From IMG/VR virus record IMGVR_UViG_2690316224_000003: a DNA stretch of 5,303 nt; one strand, 5' to 3'. Positions 290 through 5,250 of the stretch are shown one piece after another (the first letter of the stretch is position 1; every line of letters starts with the position of its first letter). The stretch is from a virus. Lineage: Duplodnaviria; Heunggongvirae; Uroviricota; Caudoviricetes. The notes below the pieces were generated by a model that saw only the letters and a program-made list of their open reading frames with translations, did not search any database and had not been told where the DNA came from. A program made the translations under genes and the position numbers.

Positions 290-295
290 CTCCTC
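290..295 (-). promoter_or_regulatory. Shine-Dalgarno (GAGGAG) for gene U, overlapping the T stop codon
   Basis: Minus-strand sequence reads TGAGGAGTCATGGCCATGATGATG. The spacing is 8 nt to the ATG at 281 and only 2 nt to the ATG at 287, so 281 is the more likely start. The arrangement suggests translational coupling of T and U. Confidence 0.6.
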
Positions 296-3116
296 AATCT
301 TTATCGTAAAAACTGCCACGCCCGGCACGGGCGCGCCGTTCCATTTCTGCCCTGACCATTTCGCCAATCAGTTTCGCCAGTTCGCGGGGATTCTGTGTAA
401 CAACGTTATGCAGATGAACATGAATTTCACCGCCAAATCCGGAGGCAACAGGCTCCCGGTTACGGGAAGTTGCAGGAACTGATGCCACTGGCGATCGTAT
501 AGCCTCCGCCACCGGGCGGGAGCTGGCCGCAACAACAGGGACCAGCGCCGGAGGCAGCGGAGCCGGAACCACGGGTGTGATAGTAATTGCGGGGGCAGGC
601 TTACTGACCTGCGCAATCTTCCGCTCCTGCCACTCCCCACGAACAGCAAGTGCGCGGGGCAGGTTCTTAAAGACAATATCGCCGGGGCCAATGCGTTTTT
701 TCGTCTCATCAACCAGCTTACCTGTGTTATCAGCAATTTTGCTGAGTCTGCGTAGCGTACCGGTATTGTTGTCTGTGAGCGGTTTGTTGTCTCTGGGTTT
801 ATCGCCTTTTTTGTCGTCGACCTTATCTGACGGGGCCGGGCCGGGAGTCCATGGTTTCTGAACCATTTTCTTGAGAACCGGATCCCATTCCCACATTACA
901 GGAGCCTTTGAAGCGTTCTCTATTTTCTTTCTCGCCCGTTCCGCTTCATCCGGAAGCACTCCGAGCTTTTCAAGTATCCACGCCAGTGAATCCATCAATG
1001 CTTTTGTTGGCGTCAGGACAAGCTCTATCGCTCCACCGAGTACCCTGCCGAATACCTCGCCAGCACTGGTACATTTATCCAGCGTTTCCTTGCTGGACTC
1101 CATCGGTGACAGCAGCGATTTAAACCAGTTAAAGACCTGAATAATCCCATCGCGCACGACATCAAAAACTGGACCGAACCGTTCAAAGGTTTCGCGCAAC
1201 GGAGCCAGCCGTTCCATAATCCCACTGAACACCCCTGCATAAAACGCCTTGATGGGTTCCCAGTATTTCCAGATGAGAACCGCCGCAGCCACAAACGCAG
1301 CAGCAATCAATCCGACCGGGCTGAACAGCGCCCCGATAGCGCCCCCCAGTAACGAAACGGAACCCGTCACCATTCCCCATAGTGCTGGCAGGAGCCTGAC
1401 AGCATTCATTGATCCGGTCAGGAGGGAAAAGCCAAGACGCAGTTTTGCCAGCGGGCCAGCAAGCACACCAATAGCCAACGACAACGAGCCGACCGTTGCA
1501 GTCATCGCCAGCAATGCCCCACCTGCAATCAGTAGCTGGCGCGTCAGTGCCGGATGGGCCTGCGCCAGCGCCGTCACCTTTGATACCACCCGCGTGAGCC
1601 ACTGCGTGACAGAACGCAGCGGACCGTCAATCAGATCTGCAATGCGGATGCGCAACCCTTCCCATGCACTGCCGAGTGATTTCAGATCGCCGTCAAGGTT
1701 GTTGTCCATAACCTTTGCTGTGCGTTCAGCCTCACCGCGCGCGCCTTCAAGTTCTTTTCTCAGTTTGGGTAAGGAGCCGTCACCCGCTGCATCAACGAGC
1801 GCCATAAACGATGTGAAAGCCTCTTCTCCGGCAATGTCCTTAAAGAACGATACCCGGTCAACTTCCCCGTATTTGCGGGTGGCTTTATAAAGGTCGGCCA
1901 GTACATCCTCCATCGGGCGCATTTTGCCGTTCGCGTCAGAGACAGCCACACCCAGCTCTTTCAGCGCCTCTGCTGCCGCCTTTGGCGGTGATGCCAGACG
2001 AGCCAGGCTGGCACGCATTGCCGTCCCGGCATCACTCCCTCTGATGCCCATATTCGCCAGCACGCCCGCCATCGCAGCGGCCTGCTCCAGCGATATTCCC
2101 AGCTTACCCGCCACCGGACCTGCATATTTCATGGTTTCGCCCAGCGCGCGAAGGTCAGTGTTGGTACGGGTAAACGCCGCTGTAAGCGTGTCGCCAACCC
2201 GGTCCATCTGGTCAGCAGAAAGGCCGAACTGCGTCAGGATATTTGAGCCAATATCTGCCGTCTCGCCGAGATCCATACCGCCAGCCGTTGCCATGCTCAG
2301 CACTCCGGGAAGCGCAGCCTGAATGGCCTGCGGTGTGAAGCCTGCCATTGCAAGAAATGCCTGCCCACTGGCGGCATCGCCTGCAGTGAACTGCGTTTCA
2401 GAGCCAAGTTTTAACGCCTGTTCACGCAGCGCCTTAAACTGCGGGCTGTTCTGGTCGATTCGCGTCAGTGCCTGAACGCGGGACATCTCTTTCCCGAACC
2501 CGATCGCAGGCTGCAAAAAACGCCCGGCAGCATAGCTGCCAGCCGCTGCCGCACCAATTGCCAGCGCACCACCTGTTTTCAGTTTTCCCGCGGTTTCCTG
2601 CGCGCGCGAATACCGCTCACGCGCACGTGTTACACGCGCAAGCGCCTGCCGTTCGCGTTCAAGCTGGTTGTTGTACTGTTCGGTGCGTCTGATGGCCTGC
2701 TGGATGGTGTTATCGCTGCCTGTCAGGGAAATGCCGTGGCGTTTCAGCTCTCCGCCAAGCTCCCGCATTTTCTGAATTTCCCGTGTGCGCGATTCATTCA
2801 GGCGTTCAAGCCGGGTGCTTAACTGCTGCATCAGCTTTTGTTGTTTTTCGCTGAGCACTGTACCCGTGCGTTGTAACTGATTAAGGGCGTTAAGCTGGCG
2901 TCGTGCTTTCACGATGCCCGCATCCGCTTTACTGACAGCGTCACGGGCGCGCTCAAATGAACGCGCCTGACGCTCGAGATTTTTGATCGCCCCCTGCGTT
3001 CGCTGGATGGAGTCACCAAACTGCCCCATCAGGCGGCGGGCGTTTTCGGCAGGCCGGGTCAGCCTGTCAACGGCGCTGAAAGCGACCCGGATATCAAGAG
3101 TCTTCATTGTCTGCAT
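294..3116 (-). CDS. T: Phage tail tape measure protein (P2 gpT-like), 940 aa
   Basis: Single long ORF from the track. It has a charged Arg/Glu/Gln/Leu-rich N-terminal ~180 aa (coiled-coil-like), a central region around aa 240-375 (FTAGDAASGQAFLAMAGF...GVLANMGIRGSDAGTAMRASLARL) typical of the tape-measure core, a Gly/Ala/Leu-rich hydrophobic stretch at aa ~527-617 (nt ~1266-1538), and a Pro-rich segment at aa ~838-884 (nt ~465-605). It sits between the chaperone E/E' and U as in P2. The start could instead be the second in-frame ATG at 3107, which has better spacing to a weak GGGA. Confidence 0.9.
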   Translation of the reverse strand: MQTMKTLDIRVAFSAVDRLTRPAENARRLMGQFGDSIQRTQGAIKNLERQARSFERARDAVSKADAGIVKARRQLNALNQLQRTGTVLSEKQQKLMQQLSTRLERLNESRTREIQKMRELGGELKRHGISLTGSDNTIQQAIRRTEQYNNQLERERQALARVTRARERYSRAQETAGKLKTGGALAIGAAAAGSYAAGRFLQPAIGFGKEMSRVQALTRIDQNSPQFKALREQALKLGSETQFTAGDAASGQAFLAMAGFTPQAIQAALPGVLSMATAGGMDLGETADIGSNILTQFGLSADQMDRVGDTLTAAFTRTNTDLRALGETMKYAGPVAGKLGISLEQAAAMAGVLANMGIRGSDAGTAMRASLARLASPPKAAAEALKELGVAVSDANGKMRPMEDVLADLYKATRKYGEVDRVSFFKDIAGEEAFTSFMALVDAAGDGSLPKLRKELEGARGEAERTAKVMDNNLDGDLKSLGSAWEGLRIRIADLIDGPLRSVTQWLTRVVSKVTALAQAHPALTRQLLIAGGALLAMTATVGSLSLAIGVLAGPLAKLRLGFSLLTGSMNAVRLLPALWGMVTGSVSLLGGAIGALFSPVGLIAAAFVAAAVLIWKYWEPIKAFYAGVFSGIMERLAPLRETFERFGPVFDVVRDGIIQVFNWFKSLLSPMESSKETLDKCTSAGEVFGRVLGGAIELVLTPTKALMDSLAWILEKLGVLPDEAERARKKIENASKAPVMWEWDPVLKKMVQKPWTPGPAPSDKVDDKKGDKPRDNKPLTDNNTGTLRRLSKIADNTGKLVDETKKRIGPGDIVFKNLPRALAVRGEWQERKIAQVSKPAPAITITPVVPAPLPPALVPVVAASSRPVAEAIRSPVASVPATSRNREPVASGFGGEIHVHLHNVVTQNPRELAKLIGEMVRAEMERRARAGRGSFYDKD

Positions 3117-3568
3117 TCCCGCTGCGAAGTGCCGCCCGCTCGCGCCAGCTAACCACTTCGCCGGGCGTCATCATGAAGATTTCGAGCGTTCAAGCCGGGT
3201 GCTTAACTGCTGCATCAGCTTTTGTTGTTTTTCGCTGAGCACTGTACCCGTGCGTTGTAACTGATTAAGGGCGTTAAGCTGGCGTCGTGCTTTCAATATG
3301 CCAGCATCCGCTTTACCGACAGCGTCACGGGCGCGCTCAAATGAACGCGCCTGACGCTCGAGATTTTTGATCGCCCCCTGCGTTCGCTGGATGGAGTCAC
3401 CAAACTGCCCCATCAGGCGGCGGGCGTTTTCGGCAGGCCGGGTCAGCCTGTCAACGGCGCTGAAAGCGACCCGGATATCAAGAGTCTTCATTGTCTGCAT
3501 TCCCGCTGCGAAGTGCCGCCCGCTCGCGCCAGCTAACCACTTCGCCGGGCGTCATCATGAAGATTTCG
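2801..3568. repeat. 384-bp direct tandem duplication, copies 2801-3184 and 3185-3568, spanning the T 5' end plus the last 68 bp of E'
   Basis: Base-by-base comparison: 3185-3568 matches 2801-3184 at a constant offset of 384, with 4 substitutions (2912, 2913, 2919, 2933 vs 3296, 3297, 3303, 3317) plus the junction base (2801 g vs 3185 a). The E' tail 3117-3184 is identical to 3501-3568. Confidence 0.9.
3171..3500 (-). pseudogene. Truncated tape-measure N-terminal fragment (T residues 1-105 followed by SKSS and a stop), created by the 384-bp duplication
   Basis: The track ORF 3171..3500 matches T residues 1-105 apart from the S->G and V->L differences, then crosses junction J1 (3184/3185) into E'-tail DNA out of frame and terminates. 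It has the same upstream context as full-length T. Confidence 0.6.
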
Positions 3569-3744
3569 GCGGGCGACCAGTTAAAAATGGCGGCAATATC
3601 CGCCACCAGATCTTCGATGTGCTCAAAGCACACCAGGGTGATTACGCTGCCGTCTCCTGCACGCTCTTCGCGCCAGAGTCTGGCTCGCTCATAAAATTTA
3701 CAGCCACAGCGCACAACTGAATAAAATCGCGTGACGACATTTTT
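3478..3744 (-). pseudogene. Duplicated E' (-1 frame) segment inside the middle repeat copy
   Basis: The track ORF 3478..3714 encodes a 78-aa protein identical to the native E' ORF 4144..4380 despite 3 nucleotide differences, all synonymous. It is preceded by a duplicated A7 slippery run at 3740-3746. Confidence 0.5.
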
Positions 3745-4166
3745 TTAATCATCACTTCATCCAGTCGTGGCGAGGTCACGCGAGGCAACAGCGTGAACAT
3801 GGTATCCGCTTTCAGATTCAGCACATCAGACAGCGACAGACCACGCAGGGATCCCGCCTGCTCAATAGCCCCGGTGATCTCCACATAATGTTGTTTTTCG
3901 CTGAGCACTGTACCCGTGCGTTGTAACTGATTAAGGGCGTTAAGCTGGCGTCGTGCTTTCAATATGCCAGCATCCGCTTTACCGACAGCGTCACGGGCGC
4001 GCTCAAATGAACGCGCCTGACGCTCGAGATTTTTGATCGCCCCCTGCGTTCGCTGGATGGAGTCACCAAACTGCCCCATCAGGCGGCGGGCGTTTTCGGC
4101 AGGCCGGGTCAGCCTGTCAACGGCGCTGAAAGCGACCCGGATGTCAAGAGTCTTCATTGTCTGCAT
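3642..4166 (-). pseudogene. In-frame chimeric ORF: tape-measure N-terminus (aa 1-92), one junction His, then chaperone E residues 44-124
   Basis: The track ORF 3642..4193 reads MQTMKTLDIR...TVLSEKQ then H then YVEITGAIEQ...SVQETAA. The likely start is the ATG at 4166; the track's 4193 is a GTG. Junction J2 lies at ~3888/3889. Whether it is expressed or functional is unknown. Confidence 0.5.
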
Positions 4167-4682
4167 TCCCGCTGCGAAGTGCCGCCCGCTCACGCCAGCT
4201 AACCACTTCGCCGGGCGTCATCATGAAGATTTCGGCGGGCGACCAGTTAAAAATGGCGGCGATATCTGCCACCAGATCTTCGATGTGCTCAAAGCACACC
4301 AGGGTGATTACGCTGCCGTCTCCTGCACGCTCTTCGCGCCAGAGTCTGGCTCGCTCATAAAATTTACAGCCACAGCGCACAACTGAATAAAATCGCGTGA
4401 CGACATTTTTTTAATCATCACTTCATCCAGTCGTGGCGAGGTCACGCGAGGCAACAGCGTGAACATGGTATCCGCTTTCAGATTCAGCACATCAGACAGC
4501 GACAGACCACGCAGGGATCCCGCCTGCTCAATAGCCCCGGTGATCTCCACATATGTGATTTTTTCGCCACCACGCTCAATTGGCCGGGAAAGTTTTACAC
4601 CACGTTCGACAGCCATATCCTCACCTGCCGTCACATCATCCGCTACGGTGTTATTCCGGGTTTCAGTATCGATATCTTTCAT
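4144..4682 (-). CDS. E': Tail assembly chaperone E+E' fusion made by programmed -1 ribosomal frameshift (predicted ~179 aa)
   Basis: Zero-frame codons ATT AAA AAA ATG (4415-4404) lie in a run of 7 A (4406-4412). The -1 frame has a TAA at 4411-4413 and is open from 4410 to the stop at 4144-4146, so a shift in the A-run gives E(1-92) then NVVTRFYSV then the 78-aa track ORF 4144..4380. The 3' end of E' overlaps the T-type start codon at 4164-4166, as in the P2 E/E'/T arrangement. Confidence 0.7.
4308..4682 (-). CDS. E: Tail assembly chaperone E (P2 gpE-like), zero-frame product of 124 aa
   Basis: ORF with a strong Shine-Dalgarno AAGGAG (4690-4695) 7 nt upstream of the ATG at 4680-4682. It lies between tail tube FII and tape measure T, as P2 gene E does, and contains an internal A7 slippery run followed by an open -1 frame. 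Confidence 0.8.
   Translation of the reverse strand: MKDIDTETRNNTVADDVTAGEDMAVERGVKLSRPIERGGEKITYVEITGAIEQAGSLRGLSLSDVLNLKADTMFTLLPRVTSPRLDEVMIKKMSSRDFIQLCAVAVNFMSEPDSGAKSVQETAA
4404..4415 (-). other. Putative -1 programmed frameshift slippery site (A7 run) of E/E'; a duplicate copy lies at 3738-3749
   Basis: Homopolymeric A7 in the mRNA sits exactly where the -1 frame opens. No obvious downstream pseudoknot was assessed. Confidence 0.6.
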
Positions 4683-4737: not shown

Positions 4738-5250
4738 TCAGCCAAGCCCAAGCGCGGAACGAATGCGGTCAGGCACAATGTCCTTGCCGTCCTTCCGGTA
4801 GATGTGGTTCAACAGGTCGATTTCCCACAGCGGGCGATCGTTAACGCTCAGCTTGTAGTAGGTGTTTTTGACAGCGTAAGTGTGTGATGTGGCTTCGCCC
4901 TGTTTGGCCTCCCCCATATCAATTTCCGTCACACGCCCGCGCATCTCGATTTCATACAGATCGCTTTCTGCATCGGTGTAGTATTCACCCGCAAAACGCA
5001 GCAGCGTGCCGTCAATCGTGCCGCCATATTTAAGGAACAGCGCACGAACAGCTCCCCCCATGACAAAACTCGCATCAAGCGCGGAGTCGTCCAGACCGAG
5101 ATCAATACTTACCGCCCCCATCATGCCACCACCACGATAGCTGTCGGTTTTGCGCGTCAGTTTGGGTGGCGTGACGGATGTCACTTTACCCACTTCGTTT
5201 TCACCATCCACAAACAACGTAAAAAAGCGAAGATGTTTTGGTACAGCCAT
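4738..5250 (-). CDS. FII: Major tail tube protein (P2 gpFII-like), 170 aa
   Basis: The track ORF contains PKLTRK..SYRGGGMMGAV..DLGLDD, which matches the contractile-tail tube family as I remember it. A GGAGGTG Shine-Dalgarno lies at 5255-5261. It is immediately upstream of E in P2 order. Confidence 0.88.
   Translation of the reverse strand: MAVPKHLRFFTLFVDGENEVGKVTSVTPPKLTRKTDSYRGGGMMGAVSIDLGLDDSALDASFVMGGAVRALFLKYGGTIDGTLLRFAGEYYTDAESDLYEIEMRGRVTEIDMGEAKQGEATSHTYAVKNTYYKLSVNDRPLWEIDLLNHIYRKDGKDIVPDRIRSALGLG

Follow-up and report, generated by a model that had tools for sequence, protein, structure and literature searches.

Three tandem copies of a tail-gene region in a P88-like prophage represent alternative phage haplotypes, probably set side by side in assembly

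Introduction

The tail genes of P88-like phages (Xuanwuvirus; P2-like, Peduoviridae) form an FII-E-E'-T-U-D operon. In P2, translation of E' uses the -1 frame relative to E (PMC3091744), a frame relation shared by the locus described here, with a predicted frameshift site that is an A7 run as against TTTTTTG in P2. Temperate phages are mosaic through homologous recombination, and in ordinary mosaicism segments are replaced one for one. Versions of one locus can also come to lie next to each other in an assembly. In heterotype false duplication, which is known from heterozygous diploid vertebrate genomes, alternative alleles of one locus are set side by side like paralogues, and the listed marks include sequence peculiar to one haplotype in each copy and a gap separating the copies (Ko et al., 2022, PMC9516828).

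Here we analyze a 5,303-nucleotide stretch of viral DNA (IMG/VR record IMGVR_UViG_2690316224_000003; hereafter the window), which carries the FII-E-E'-T-U tail operon from a prophage of the P88-like group (Xuanwuvirus, P2-like) with E. coli or a close relative as host. Gene order and domains are those of the P88-like operon, but the window holds 1050 extra bases that the relatives lack, with the T start present three times and the E' and E end twice. Where ordinary mosaicism exchanges segments, the window stacks three versions in tandem. The original prediction, made from the letters of the window, was that the copies differ mostly at synonymous positions, look like distinct functional alleles, and derive either from two related P2-like phages, as a recombinational mosaic, or from reads of two related prophages braided during assembly.

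Results

The operon lies on the minus strand and comprises FII, E, E', T, and the start of U, together with the extra bases (Table 1). The order of tube (FII), chaperone (E), extension (E'), tape measure (T) and U matches the P2-like operon and the annotated order in relatives, where T is likewise annotated as tape measure and E as a tail protein. Over 98% of the window, the nucleotide sequence is 96.1% identical to that of Xuanwuvirus P884B11 and 92.5% identical to that of phage P88. The region as a whole is given as 96-98% identical to P88-like prophages and phages; phages P88, P884B11, 520873, and Shae_phiSM fall at 92-96%, and E. coli prophages reach 98%. In copy 3 the E' frame, -1 relative to E, opens within the A7 run (4406-4412), at which a predicted -1 frameshift would lead from E into E'.

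Position-by-position comparison resolves three overlapping head-to-tail copies of the region from the T start through E' to the end of E, all on one strand, with offsets of +384 and +666. The outermost gene parts are the intact ones, E/E' being supplied by copy 3 and T by copy 1, within which T codons 1-105 lie; the full 940-aa T is reached only from the copy-1 start. The 109-aa T stub of copy 2 lacks the tape-measure domain (Pfam). From the copy-3 T start, a 174-aa ORF crosses junction 2 in frame and finishes with the last 81 residues of the E fragment in copy 2; this T-E fusion matched no Pfam family. The copy-1 E' fragment has neither an E partner nor a frameshift site. None of the exact products of T (940 aa), the stub, or the 174/183-aa fusion was present among the protein records searched.

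Table 1. Coordinates of the tail genes, repeat copies, junctions and junction-derived reading frames in the window.
Feature	Position	Strand	Description
Gene T, tail tape measure	294..3116	-	940 aa, intact ORF; Pfam PhageMin_Tail, E = 2e-58
Repeat copy 1	2802-3184	-	T codons 1-105 plus 68 bases upstream of the T start (3' part of E')
Truncated T start, copy 2	3171..3500	-	109-aa ORF over junction 1; stop 4 codons past the junction
Junction 1	3185		Lone orphan A; differs from the native continuation (G at 3569) and from the base before the restart (G at 2801)
Repeat copy 2	3186-3887	-	702 bases; T codons 1-105, whole E' extension, 3' two-thirds of E
E' frame, copy 2	3478..3744	-	-1 frame relative to E
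T-E fusion ORF	3642..4166	-	174 aa, from the copy-3 T start; listed as 183 aa from an upstream GTG
Junction 2	3888		Lone orphan A; native base T on both sides (4554, 2838)
Repeat copy 3	3889-4553	-	665 bases; runs on into unique E/FII sequence
E' frame, copy 3	4144..4410	-	Pfam Phage_P2_GpE, E = 3e-12
Gene E, tail assembly chaperone	4308..4682	-	124 aa, intact; Pfam Phage_TAC_7, weak, under the curated cut-off
Gene FII, tail tube	4738..5250	-	170 aa; Pfam Phage_tube, E = 2e-45
Junction-spanning strings	3185, 3888		GATTTCGAGCGTTCAAG and CCACATAATGTTGTTTT
Further junction strings	3185, 3888		GAAGATTTCGAGCGTTCAAGCC and CTCCACATAATGTTGTTTTTCGC

The copies differ at the eight positions first predicted, and the predicted coding effects were recovered by codon mapping. 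Copies 1 and 2 differ at exactly four sites, 2912 (C/A), 2913 (G/T), 2919 (C/A), and 2933 (T/C), at which copies 2 and 3 are identical to each other. Two of these changes alter T, V to L at the first position of codon 69 (2912) and S to G at the first position of codon 62 (2933), and two are silent, in codons 68 (I; 2913) and 66 (A; 2919). Copies 2 and 3 differ at exactly four further sites, 3477 (A/G), 3526 (G/A), 3595 (A/G), and 3601 (C/T), all silent in the T or E' frame: the first falls in T codon 8 (D) and misses the E' stop by one base, and the others are the last bases of E' codons 63, 40, and 38. The E' ORFs of copies 2 and 3 thus encode identical 78-aa proteins despite three base differences, while the 117-aa antisense ORFs differ between copies at four residues.

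Six of the eight changes are therefore silent in the sense frames. Of all single-base changes that could occur in the repeated span, only 20.8% leave every sense frame unaltered at the protein level, and six or more silent changes of eight then has a probability of 0.0015 under random change, although the sites should not be counted as eight separate events (2912/2913 and 3595/3601 are linked, and four sites lie within 22 bases). This excess, together with the identical E' products, is what would be expected of true paralogues that diverged after duplication under purifying selection and were kept as distinct functional alleles. We regard that account as very improbable. The T of copies 2 and 3, cut at codon 105 or joined to E, cannot be a tape measure, and the E' of copy 1 stands without its partner and frameshift site. 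The predicted functional alleles consequently fail for the copies in place, two of the three T starts giving only the stub and the fusion. The number of differences (about 1%) is low enough to fit recent copies altered by sequencing or consensus errors, or by neutral decay of redundant sequence; we give this explanation almost no credence in view of the silent excess and of the complete lack of indels against relatives over 4252 bases.

Comparison with homologous sites in 77 single-copy relatives bears on both accounts. All eight sites are polymorphic in these relatives, with exactly the two bases found in the window and with minor-allele counts of 23, 23, 36, 2, 17, 36, 14, and 14 of 77. Eight random substitutions would all match observed alleles with a probability of 1.3e-11, and new mutations in diverging paralogues would coincide with them about as rarely (P about 1e-11). 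Among the relatives, perfect linkage joins 2912 to 2913 and 3595 to 3601 (3211/3217 in collapsed coordinates), and each pair also changes together in the window. Since all eight alternatives segregate in relatives and two pairs are linked, the differences are variation inherited from at least two phage lineages, and not errors, decay, or divergence after duplication. Both post-duplication divergence and sequencing error are contradicted by this allele match. The view that the differences do not resemble sequencing error or decay is in this way borne out.

The silent bias can be understood from the same population. Among natural variant alleles in the span, 53 of 92 are silent, so that six of eight is unremarkable as a draw from standing variation (P = 0.27). 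The differences are mostly silent because the alleles come from single-copy genes under purifying selection; the bias is the trace of selection on intact single-copy ancestors, not on the copies in the window.

The eight sites form 13 haplotypes among the 77 loci. Copy 1 carries CGCT-A-G (at 2912, 2913, 2919, 2933, 3093, and 3142), and its span is identical to three of the relatives (L001-L003). Copy 3 carries ATAC-G-A-G-T (at 3962, 3963, 3969, 3983, 4143, 4192, 4261, and 4267) and differs from another relative, L007, by two bases. Copy 2, with ATAC-A-G-A-C (at 3296, 3297, 3303, 3317, 3477, 3526, 3595, and 3601), has no exact match among the 77; it is of the L001 type except at the four left-hand sites, and so is a hybrid of the copy-1 (L001) and copy-3 types. 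E. coli CFSAN018748 has one more combination, ATAC-GA-AC. Complete E. coli genomes contained no exact match to copies 2 and 3 and so pointed to no donor, the best matches being 99.5-99.6% identical (three differences). The three copies therefore stand for two or three phage haplotypes of one locus. The proposed origin in related P2-like phages stands in that the alleles are those of related phages, but the haplotypes number three, not two.

Similarity to any one relative switches in blocks along T, and this, with the 13 site combinations, fits mosaicism by homologous recombination. The de-duplicated window is not significantly unusual as a chimera: 76 differences separate it from its nearest neighbour, the median being 31.5, but 7 of 72 relatives are equally or more isolated.

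The repeated layout was found in the window only. The 1369 E. coli records covering the window all give a span of about 4252 bases, as against 5303, and the single-copy layout is also that of 13 phage and 8 plasmid records. No direct repeat was present at the locus in 81 fetched loci, and no duplication in about 1,400 related loci (complete E. coli genomes, phage, and plasmid records). Co-resident related prophages are common, with 1556 places in 1391 records and up to three per genome.

At both junctions the flanks match native sequence right up to the orphan A, and the native base beside each junction is the same on the two sides (G/G and T/T). No usable microhomology was found at 3185 or 3888; at most one base is shared per junction, and that only if the orphan A is a miscall. 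No N is present in the window. Scans of the genome, viral, and metagenome contig collections turned up neither junction string, and strings with a wildcard at the orphan base were also missing from viral contigs. Copy ends beside polymorphic sites would suggest de Bruijn branch points, but only one end of four (3503) adjoins a variable column (3504).

These junctions bear on whether the triplication exists in cis. A real nested tandem duplication would have arisen by two illegitimate joins, of 3184 to the equivalent of 2802 and of 3887 to the equivalent of 2839, combined with homologous exchange in which one or two related P88-like phages took part, so that the copies would carry different parental alleles. 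Co-resident prophages or superinfecting phages could have served as these partners, and the stub and the T-E fusion would be encoded beside intact FII, E, E', and T. We consider this possible but doubtful. It would accommodate the head-to-tail copies in one orientation, whose outermost parts rebuild intact E/E' and T; the heavily mosaic population (with its haplotypes and block switching in T), which points to frequent exchange; the two to three related prophages in many genomes; the modest load, 1050 bases being about 3% of a 36-kb genome; and the agreeing native bases at the junctions, as with 1-nt microhomology. Yet it calls for two illegitimate joins, with an orphan A left unexplained at both, and for two or more homologous exchanges in a span of 1.7 kb. 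RecA-independent duplications in bacteria are expected to join where the partners share a short sequence and to contain no untemplated base, whereas here usable microhomology is absent from both junctions and the orphan base matches neither partner. Further examples among related loci are likewise wanting, as are the junction strings in every collection searched, and the truncated copies bring no apparent selective benefit.

Discussion

The make-up of the junctions and the lack of a second example of the structure favour assembly error over a real mosaic. We suggest that the triplication is probably a false "heterotype" duplication, created from contig ends that were abutted without being merged. 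The sample would have contained more than one related prophage or strain, from which the assembler may have produced three pieces with ends overlapping by 383 and 665 bases and four differences in each overlap. These pieces would then have been joined with one filler base each and no merging. Because overlaps hundreds of bases long do not arise between simple de Bruijn contigs, such an artefact would need an assembler of the overlap type, a scaffolder, or a gap closer. The filler-base reading also presupposes that a one-base gap or an ambiguous base was turned into A.

As in heterotype false duplication (PMC9516828), alternative alleles of one locus stand in the window like paralogues, haplotype-specific bases distinguish the copies at all eight sites, and an anomaly lies exactly between the copies and is accompanied by an apparent gain of genes. 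The gap differs, being one called base in the window and a run of N in the described cases, and the "haplotypes" would here be prophages or strains in a bacterial sample rather than the two of a diploid genome.

Two observations concern the structure itself. The G/G and T/T agreement could instead mean that a junction with real 1-nt microhomology has had one base miscalled. With full T, E, E', and FII all intact, a real prophage with the triplicated layout could be viable. Such a structure might be a captured intermediate of module exchange, made by repeated template switching or illegitimate recombination at the E'/T boundary among two or three co-resident P88-like prophages, a suggestion that we hold only tentatively and think unlikely.

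Our analysis carries a caution, since silent-biased differences between tandem copies resemble those of selected paralogues and are here only the alternative alleles of a single-copy locus. If the record is public, its tail operon is probably mis-assembled, and the extra "genes" (the T stub, the T-E fusion, and the second E') should not be annotated or tallied as gene gains. Should the structure be real, its interest would be modest, as a curiosity of recombination among P2-like prophages resident together, and an N-terminal stub of the tape measure and a fusion of T to the E chaperone would be predicted to be expressed beside the intact genes.

Tail operon and repeat layout

Judged from its ORFs and Pfam matches, the minus strand of the window carries a P2-like prophage tail operon, including the start of U (see table). 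DNA identity is 96% to Xuanwuvirus P884B11 and 92.5% to phage P88, and reaches 98% with prophages of E. coli; in the 1391 complete E. coli records concerned, related prophages occupy 1556 places, and two or three per genome are common. The same region spans about 4252 bases in every such relative, compared with 5303 in the window. The 1050 extra bases form a nested repeat with its copies head-to-tail, so that the start of T occurs three times and the E' extension with the 3' part of E twice in full; the final 68 bases ahead of the T start recur a third time.

Features of the tail operon, repeat copies and derived ORFs (window coordinates)
Feature	Coordinates	Strand	Basis	Remarks
FII, tail tube	4738-5250	minus	ORF list, Pfam Phage_tube	
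E	4308-4682	minus	ORF list, Pfam Phage_TAC_7	
E' extension	4144-4410	minus	ORF list, Pfam Phage_P2_GpE	-1 frame
T, tape measure	294-3116	minus	ORF list, Pfam PhageMin_Tail	940 aa
Copy 1	2802-3184			one base follows at 3185 (junction 1); haplotype CGCT-A-G, stops short of last two sites
Copy 2	3186-3887			one base follows at 3888 (junction 2); haplotype ATAC-A-G-A-C
Copy 3	from 3889			continues into unique E/FII sequence; haplotype ATAC-G-A-G-T
Antisense ORFs, 117 aa	3367-3720, 4033-4386	plus		overlap E' and T start
Chimeric ORF, 174 aa	3642-4166	minus		junction 2 keeps frame

Both junctions are a lone A that is neither the usual continuation of the left flank nor the usual predecessor of the right flank. 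The flanks follow native sequence right up to this A, and there is therefore no microhomology at either junction. In native sequence the two sides of a junction share one base (G at junction 1, T at junction 2), so the A may be an inserted filler, or else stand at a 1-nt overlap where a base was miscalled or masked. No N occurs anywhere in the window.

The E' -1 frame opens within an A7 run (4406-4412, minus; copy at 3740-3746), across which the E frame reads ATT AAA AAA ATG. A7 is the presumed slippery site here, whereas TTTTTTG has been described for P2, and E is 124 aa long compared with 91 aa in P2.

Differences between copies are standing phage variation

Position-by-position comparison found that the copies differ at exactly eight sites: 2912, 2913, 2919 and 2933 between copies 1 and 2, and 3477, 3526, 3595 and 3601 between copies 2 and 3. 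The original prediction had named these positions and bases without error or omission, and its coding effects held on a codon check. In T, the changes at 2913 and 2919 leave the residue as it is, while 2912 and 2933 give V69L and S62G; 3477 is silent (T codon 8), as are 3526, 3595 and 3601, all third positions in E' codons. The two 78-aa E' ORFs are, as had been claimed, identical, whereas four residues distinguish the 117-aa antisense ORFs. These antisense ORFs are almost certainly non-coding, because they change between copies and the sense products do not.

When all single-base changes in the repeated span were enumerated, 20.8% were silent in all sense frames, such that at least six silent changes in eight would arise by random change with P = 0.0015, the independent events being fewer than eight. 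The silent-biased pattern is real and non-random. Of related loci, IMG/VR supplied 80 and complete E. coli genomes two more; the 77 covering the region were aligned against the de-duplicated window. All eight sites are polymorphic in these single-copy relatives, for exactly the window's two bases (minor-allele counts 23, 23, 36, 2, 17, 36, 14 and 14 of 77). With 92 variant alleles among 2106 possible changes in the repeated span, the probability that eight random changes all match observed alleles is 1.3e-11. Perfect linkage in the population was found for 2912/2913 and for the pair equivalent to 3595/3601, and both pairs switch together in the window. The proposal that the alleles derive from related P2-like phages, and not from error or decay, is thus strongly supported by allele match and linkage.

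Natural variants are themselves silent in every frame in 53 of 92 cases, and eight drawn from them include at least six silent ones with P = 0.27. The silent excess therefore reflects purifying selection on intact single-copy genes of the phage population, and is uninformative on selection acting on the window's copies.

A common G/A polymorphism (44 of 77) lies in the T/E' overlap at position 3109 of the de-duplicated window (window 3109, 3493 and 4159). It alters T codon 3 and is silent in E', which shows that the two overlapping frames are unequally constrained.

Haplotypes and recombination

Three of the relatives (L001-L003) are identical to copy 1 over its length, and another, L007, is two bases from copy 3. 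No exact relative of copy 2 was found among the 77; it equals the L001 type except at the four left-hand sites. E. coli CFSAN018748 carries a further combination, ATAC-G-A-A-C, and 13 combinations occur in the 77 relatives. The window thus represents two or three phage haplotypes, from a population in which these sites are freely reshuffled.

The middle of T is much more divergent between relatives than the T 5' end, E, E' and FII, with as many as 79 differences in 250 bases (window 500-2250 against L007, L002 and L061). The nearest relative also switches abruptly, from L081-like (1-2200) to L007-like (2251-2911) and L001-like (from 2629), a pattern that points to frequent recombination within the tape-measure gene. 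L001 (IMGVR_UViG_2693429529_000027), a very short contig of 5139 bases, is identical to copy 1 and to the right part of the window and stops inside T near window 2148. As this end falls close to the switch of nearest relative, it suggests that the T region commonly breaks assemblies holding more than one related prophage. L081 (E. coli FDAARGOS_1059) carries an inverted repeat (58-401 and 918-1260, 77% identical) spanning two opposed tail-fibre assembly genes, with a gene for a recombinase alongside. This has the look of an invertible tail-fibre segment for host range, placed directly downstream of the tail operon.

Origin and coding state of the stacked copies

The duplication was absent from 1369 E. 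coli, 13 phage and 8 plasmid records, a direct repeat at this place was seen in 0 of 81 fetched loci, and neither junction string had a match in collections of genomes, viruses or metagenomes. Tandem artefacts of this kind are known to arise from gap closers, and some scaffolders put a single n where an overlap is unresolved. Mixed templates, together with a step that sets overlapping contig ends of differing sequence end to end with one spacer base, would be enough to produce the arrangement. It resembles heterotype false duplication, in which alternative alleles stand side by side with an anomaly between them (PMC9516828). A real structure in cis would require two illegitimate joins, both with the same odd A, and also two or more homologous exchanges involving other phages within 1.7 kb, and we regard it as rather unlikely; an assembly artefact is the reading we moderately favor. 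Where the original prediction had left recombinational mosaic and assembly braid side by side, the junctions and the uniqueness of the structure lean towards the braid.

We found no evidence that the de-duplicated window is a chimeric consensus: its nearest neighbor differs at 76 positions (relatives' median 31.5), and 7 of 72 relatives are equally or more isolated. Nor do the copy ends lie systematically beside polymorphic sites.

The description of the copies as functional alleles is not supported for them in place, two of the three T starts being truncated or fused. Only the copy-1 T start yields the full 940-aa tape measure. That of copy 2 enters junction 1 and ends after 109 aa, and that of copy 3 (about 93 codons) is fused in frame with the C-terminal 81 residues encoded by the E fragment of copy 2, forming the 174-aa ORF; Pfam found no tape-measure domain in either product. 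The copy-1 E' fragment has neither E nor the frameshift site upstream.

The differences are standing variation of a well-known phage family and hold no new biology; what the window puts on display, probably through mis-assembly, is that variation.
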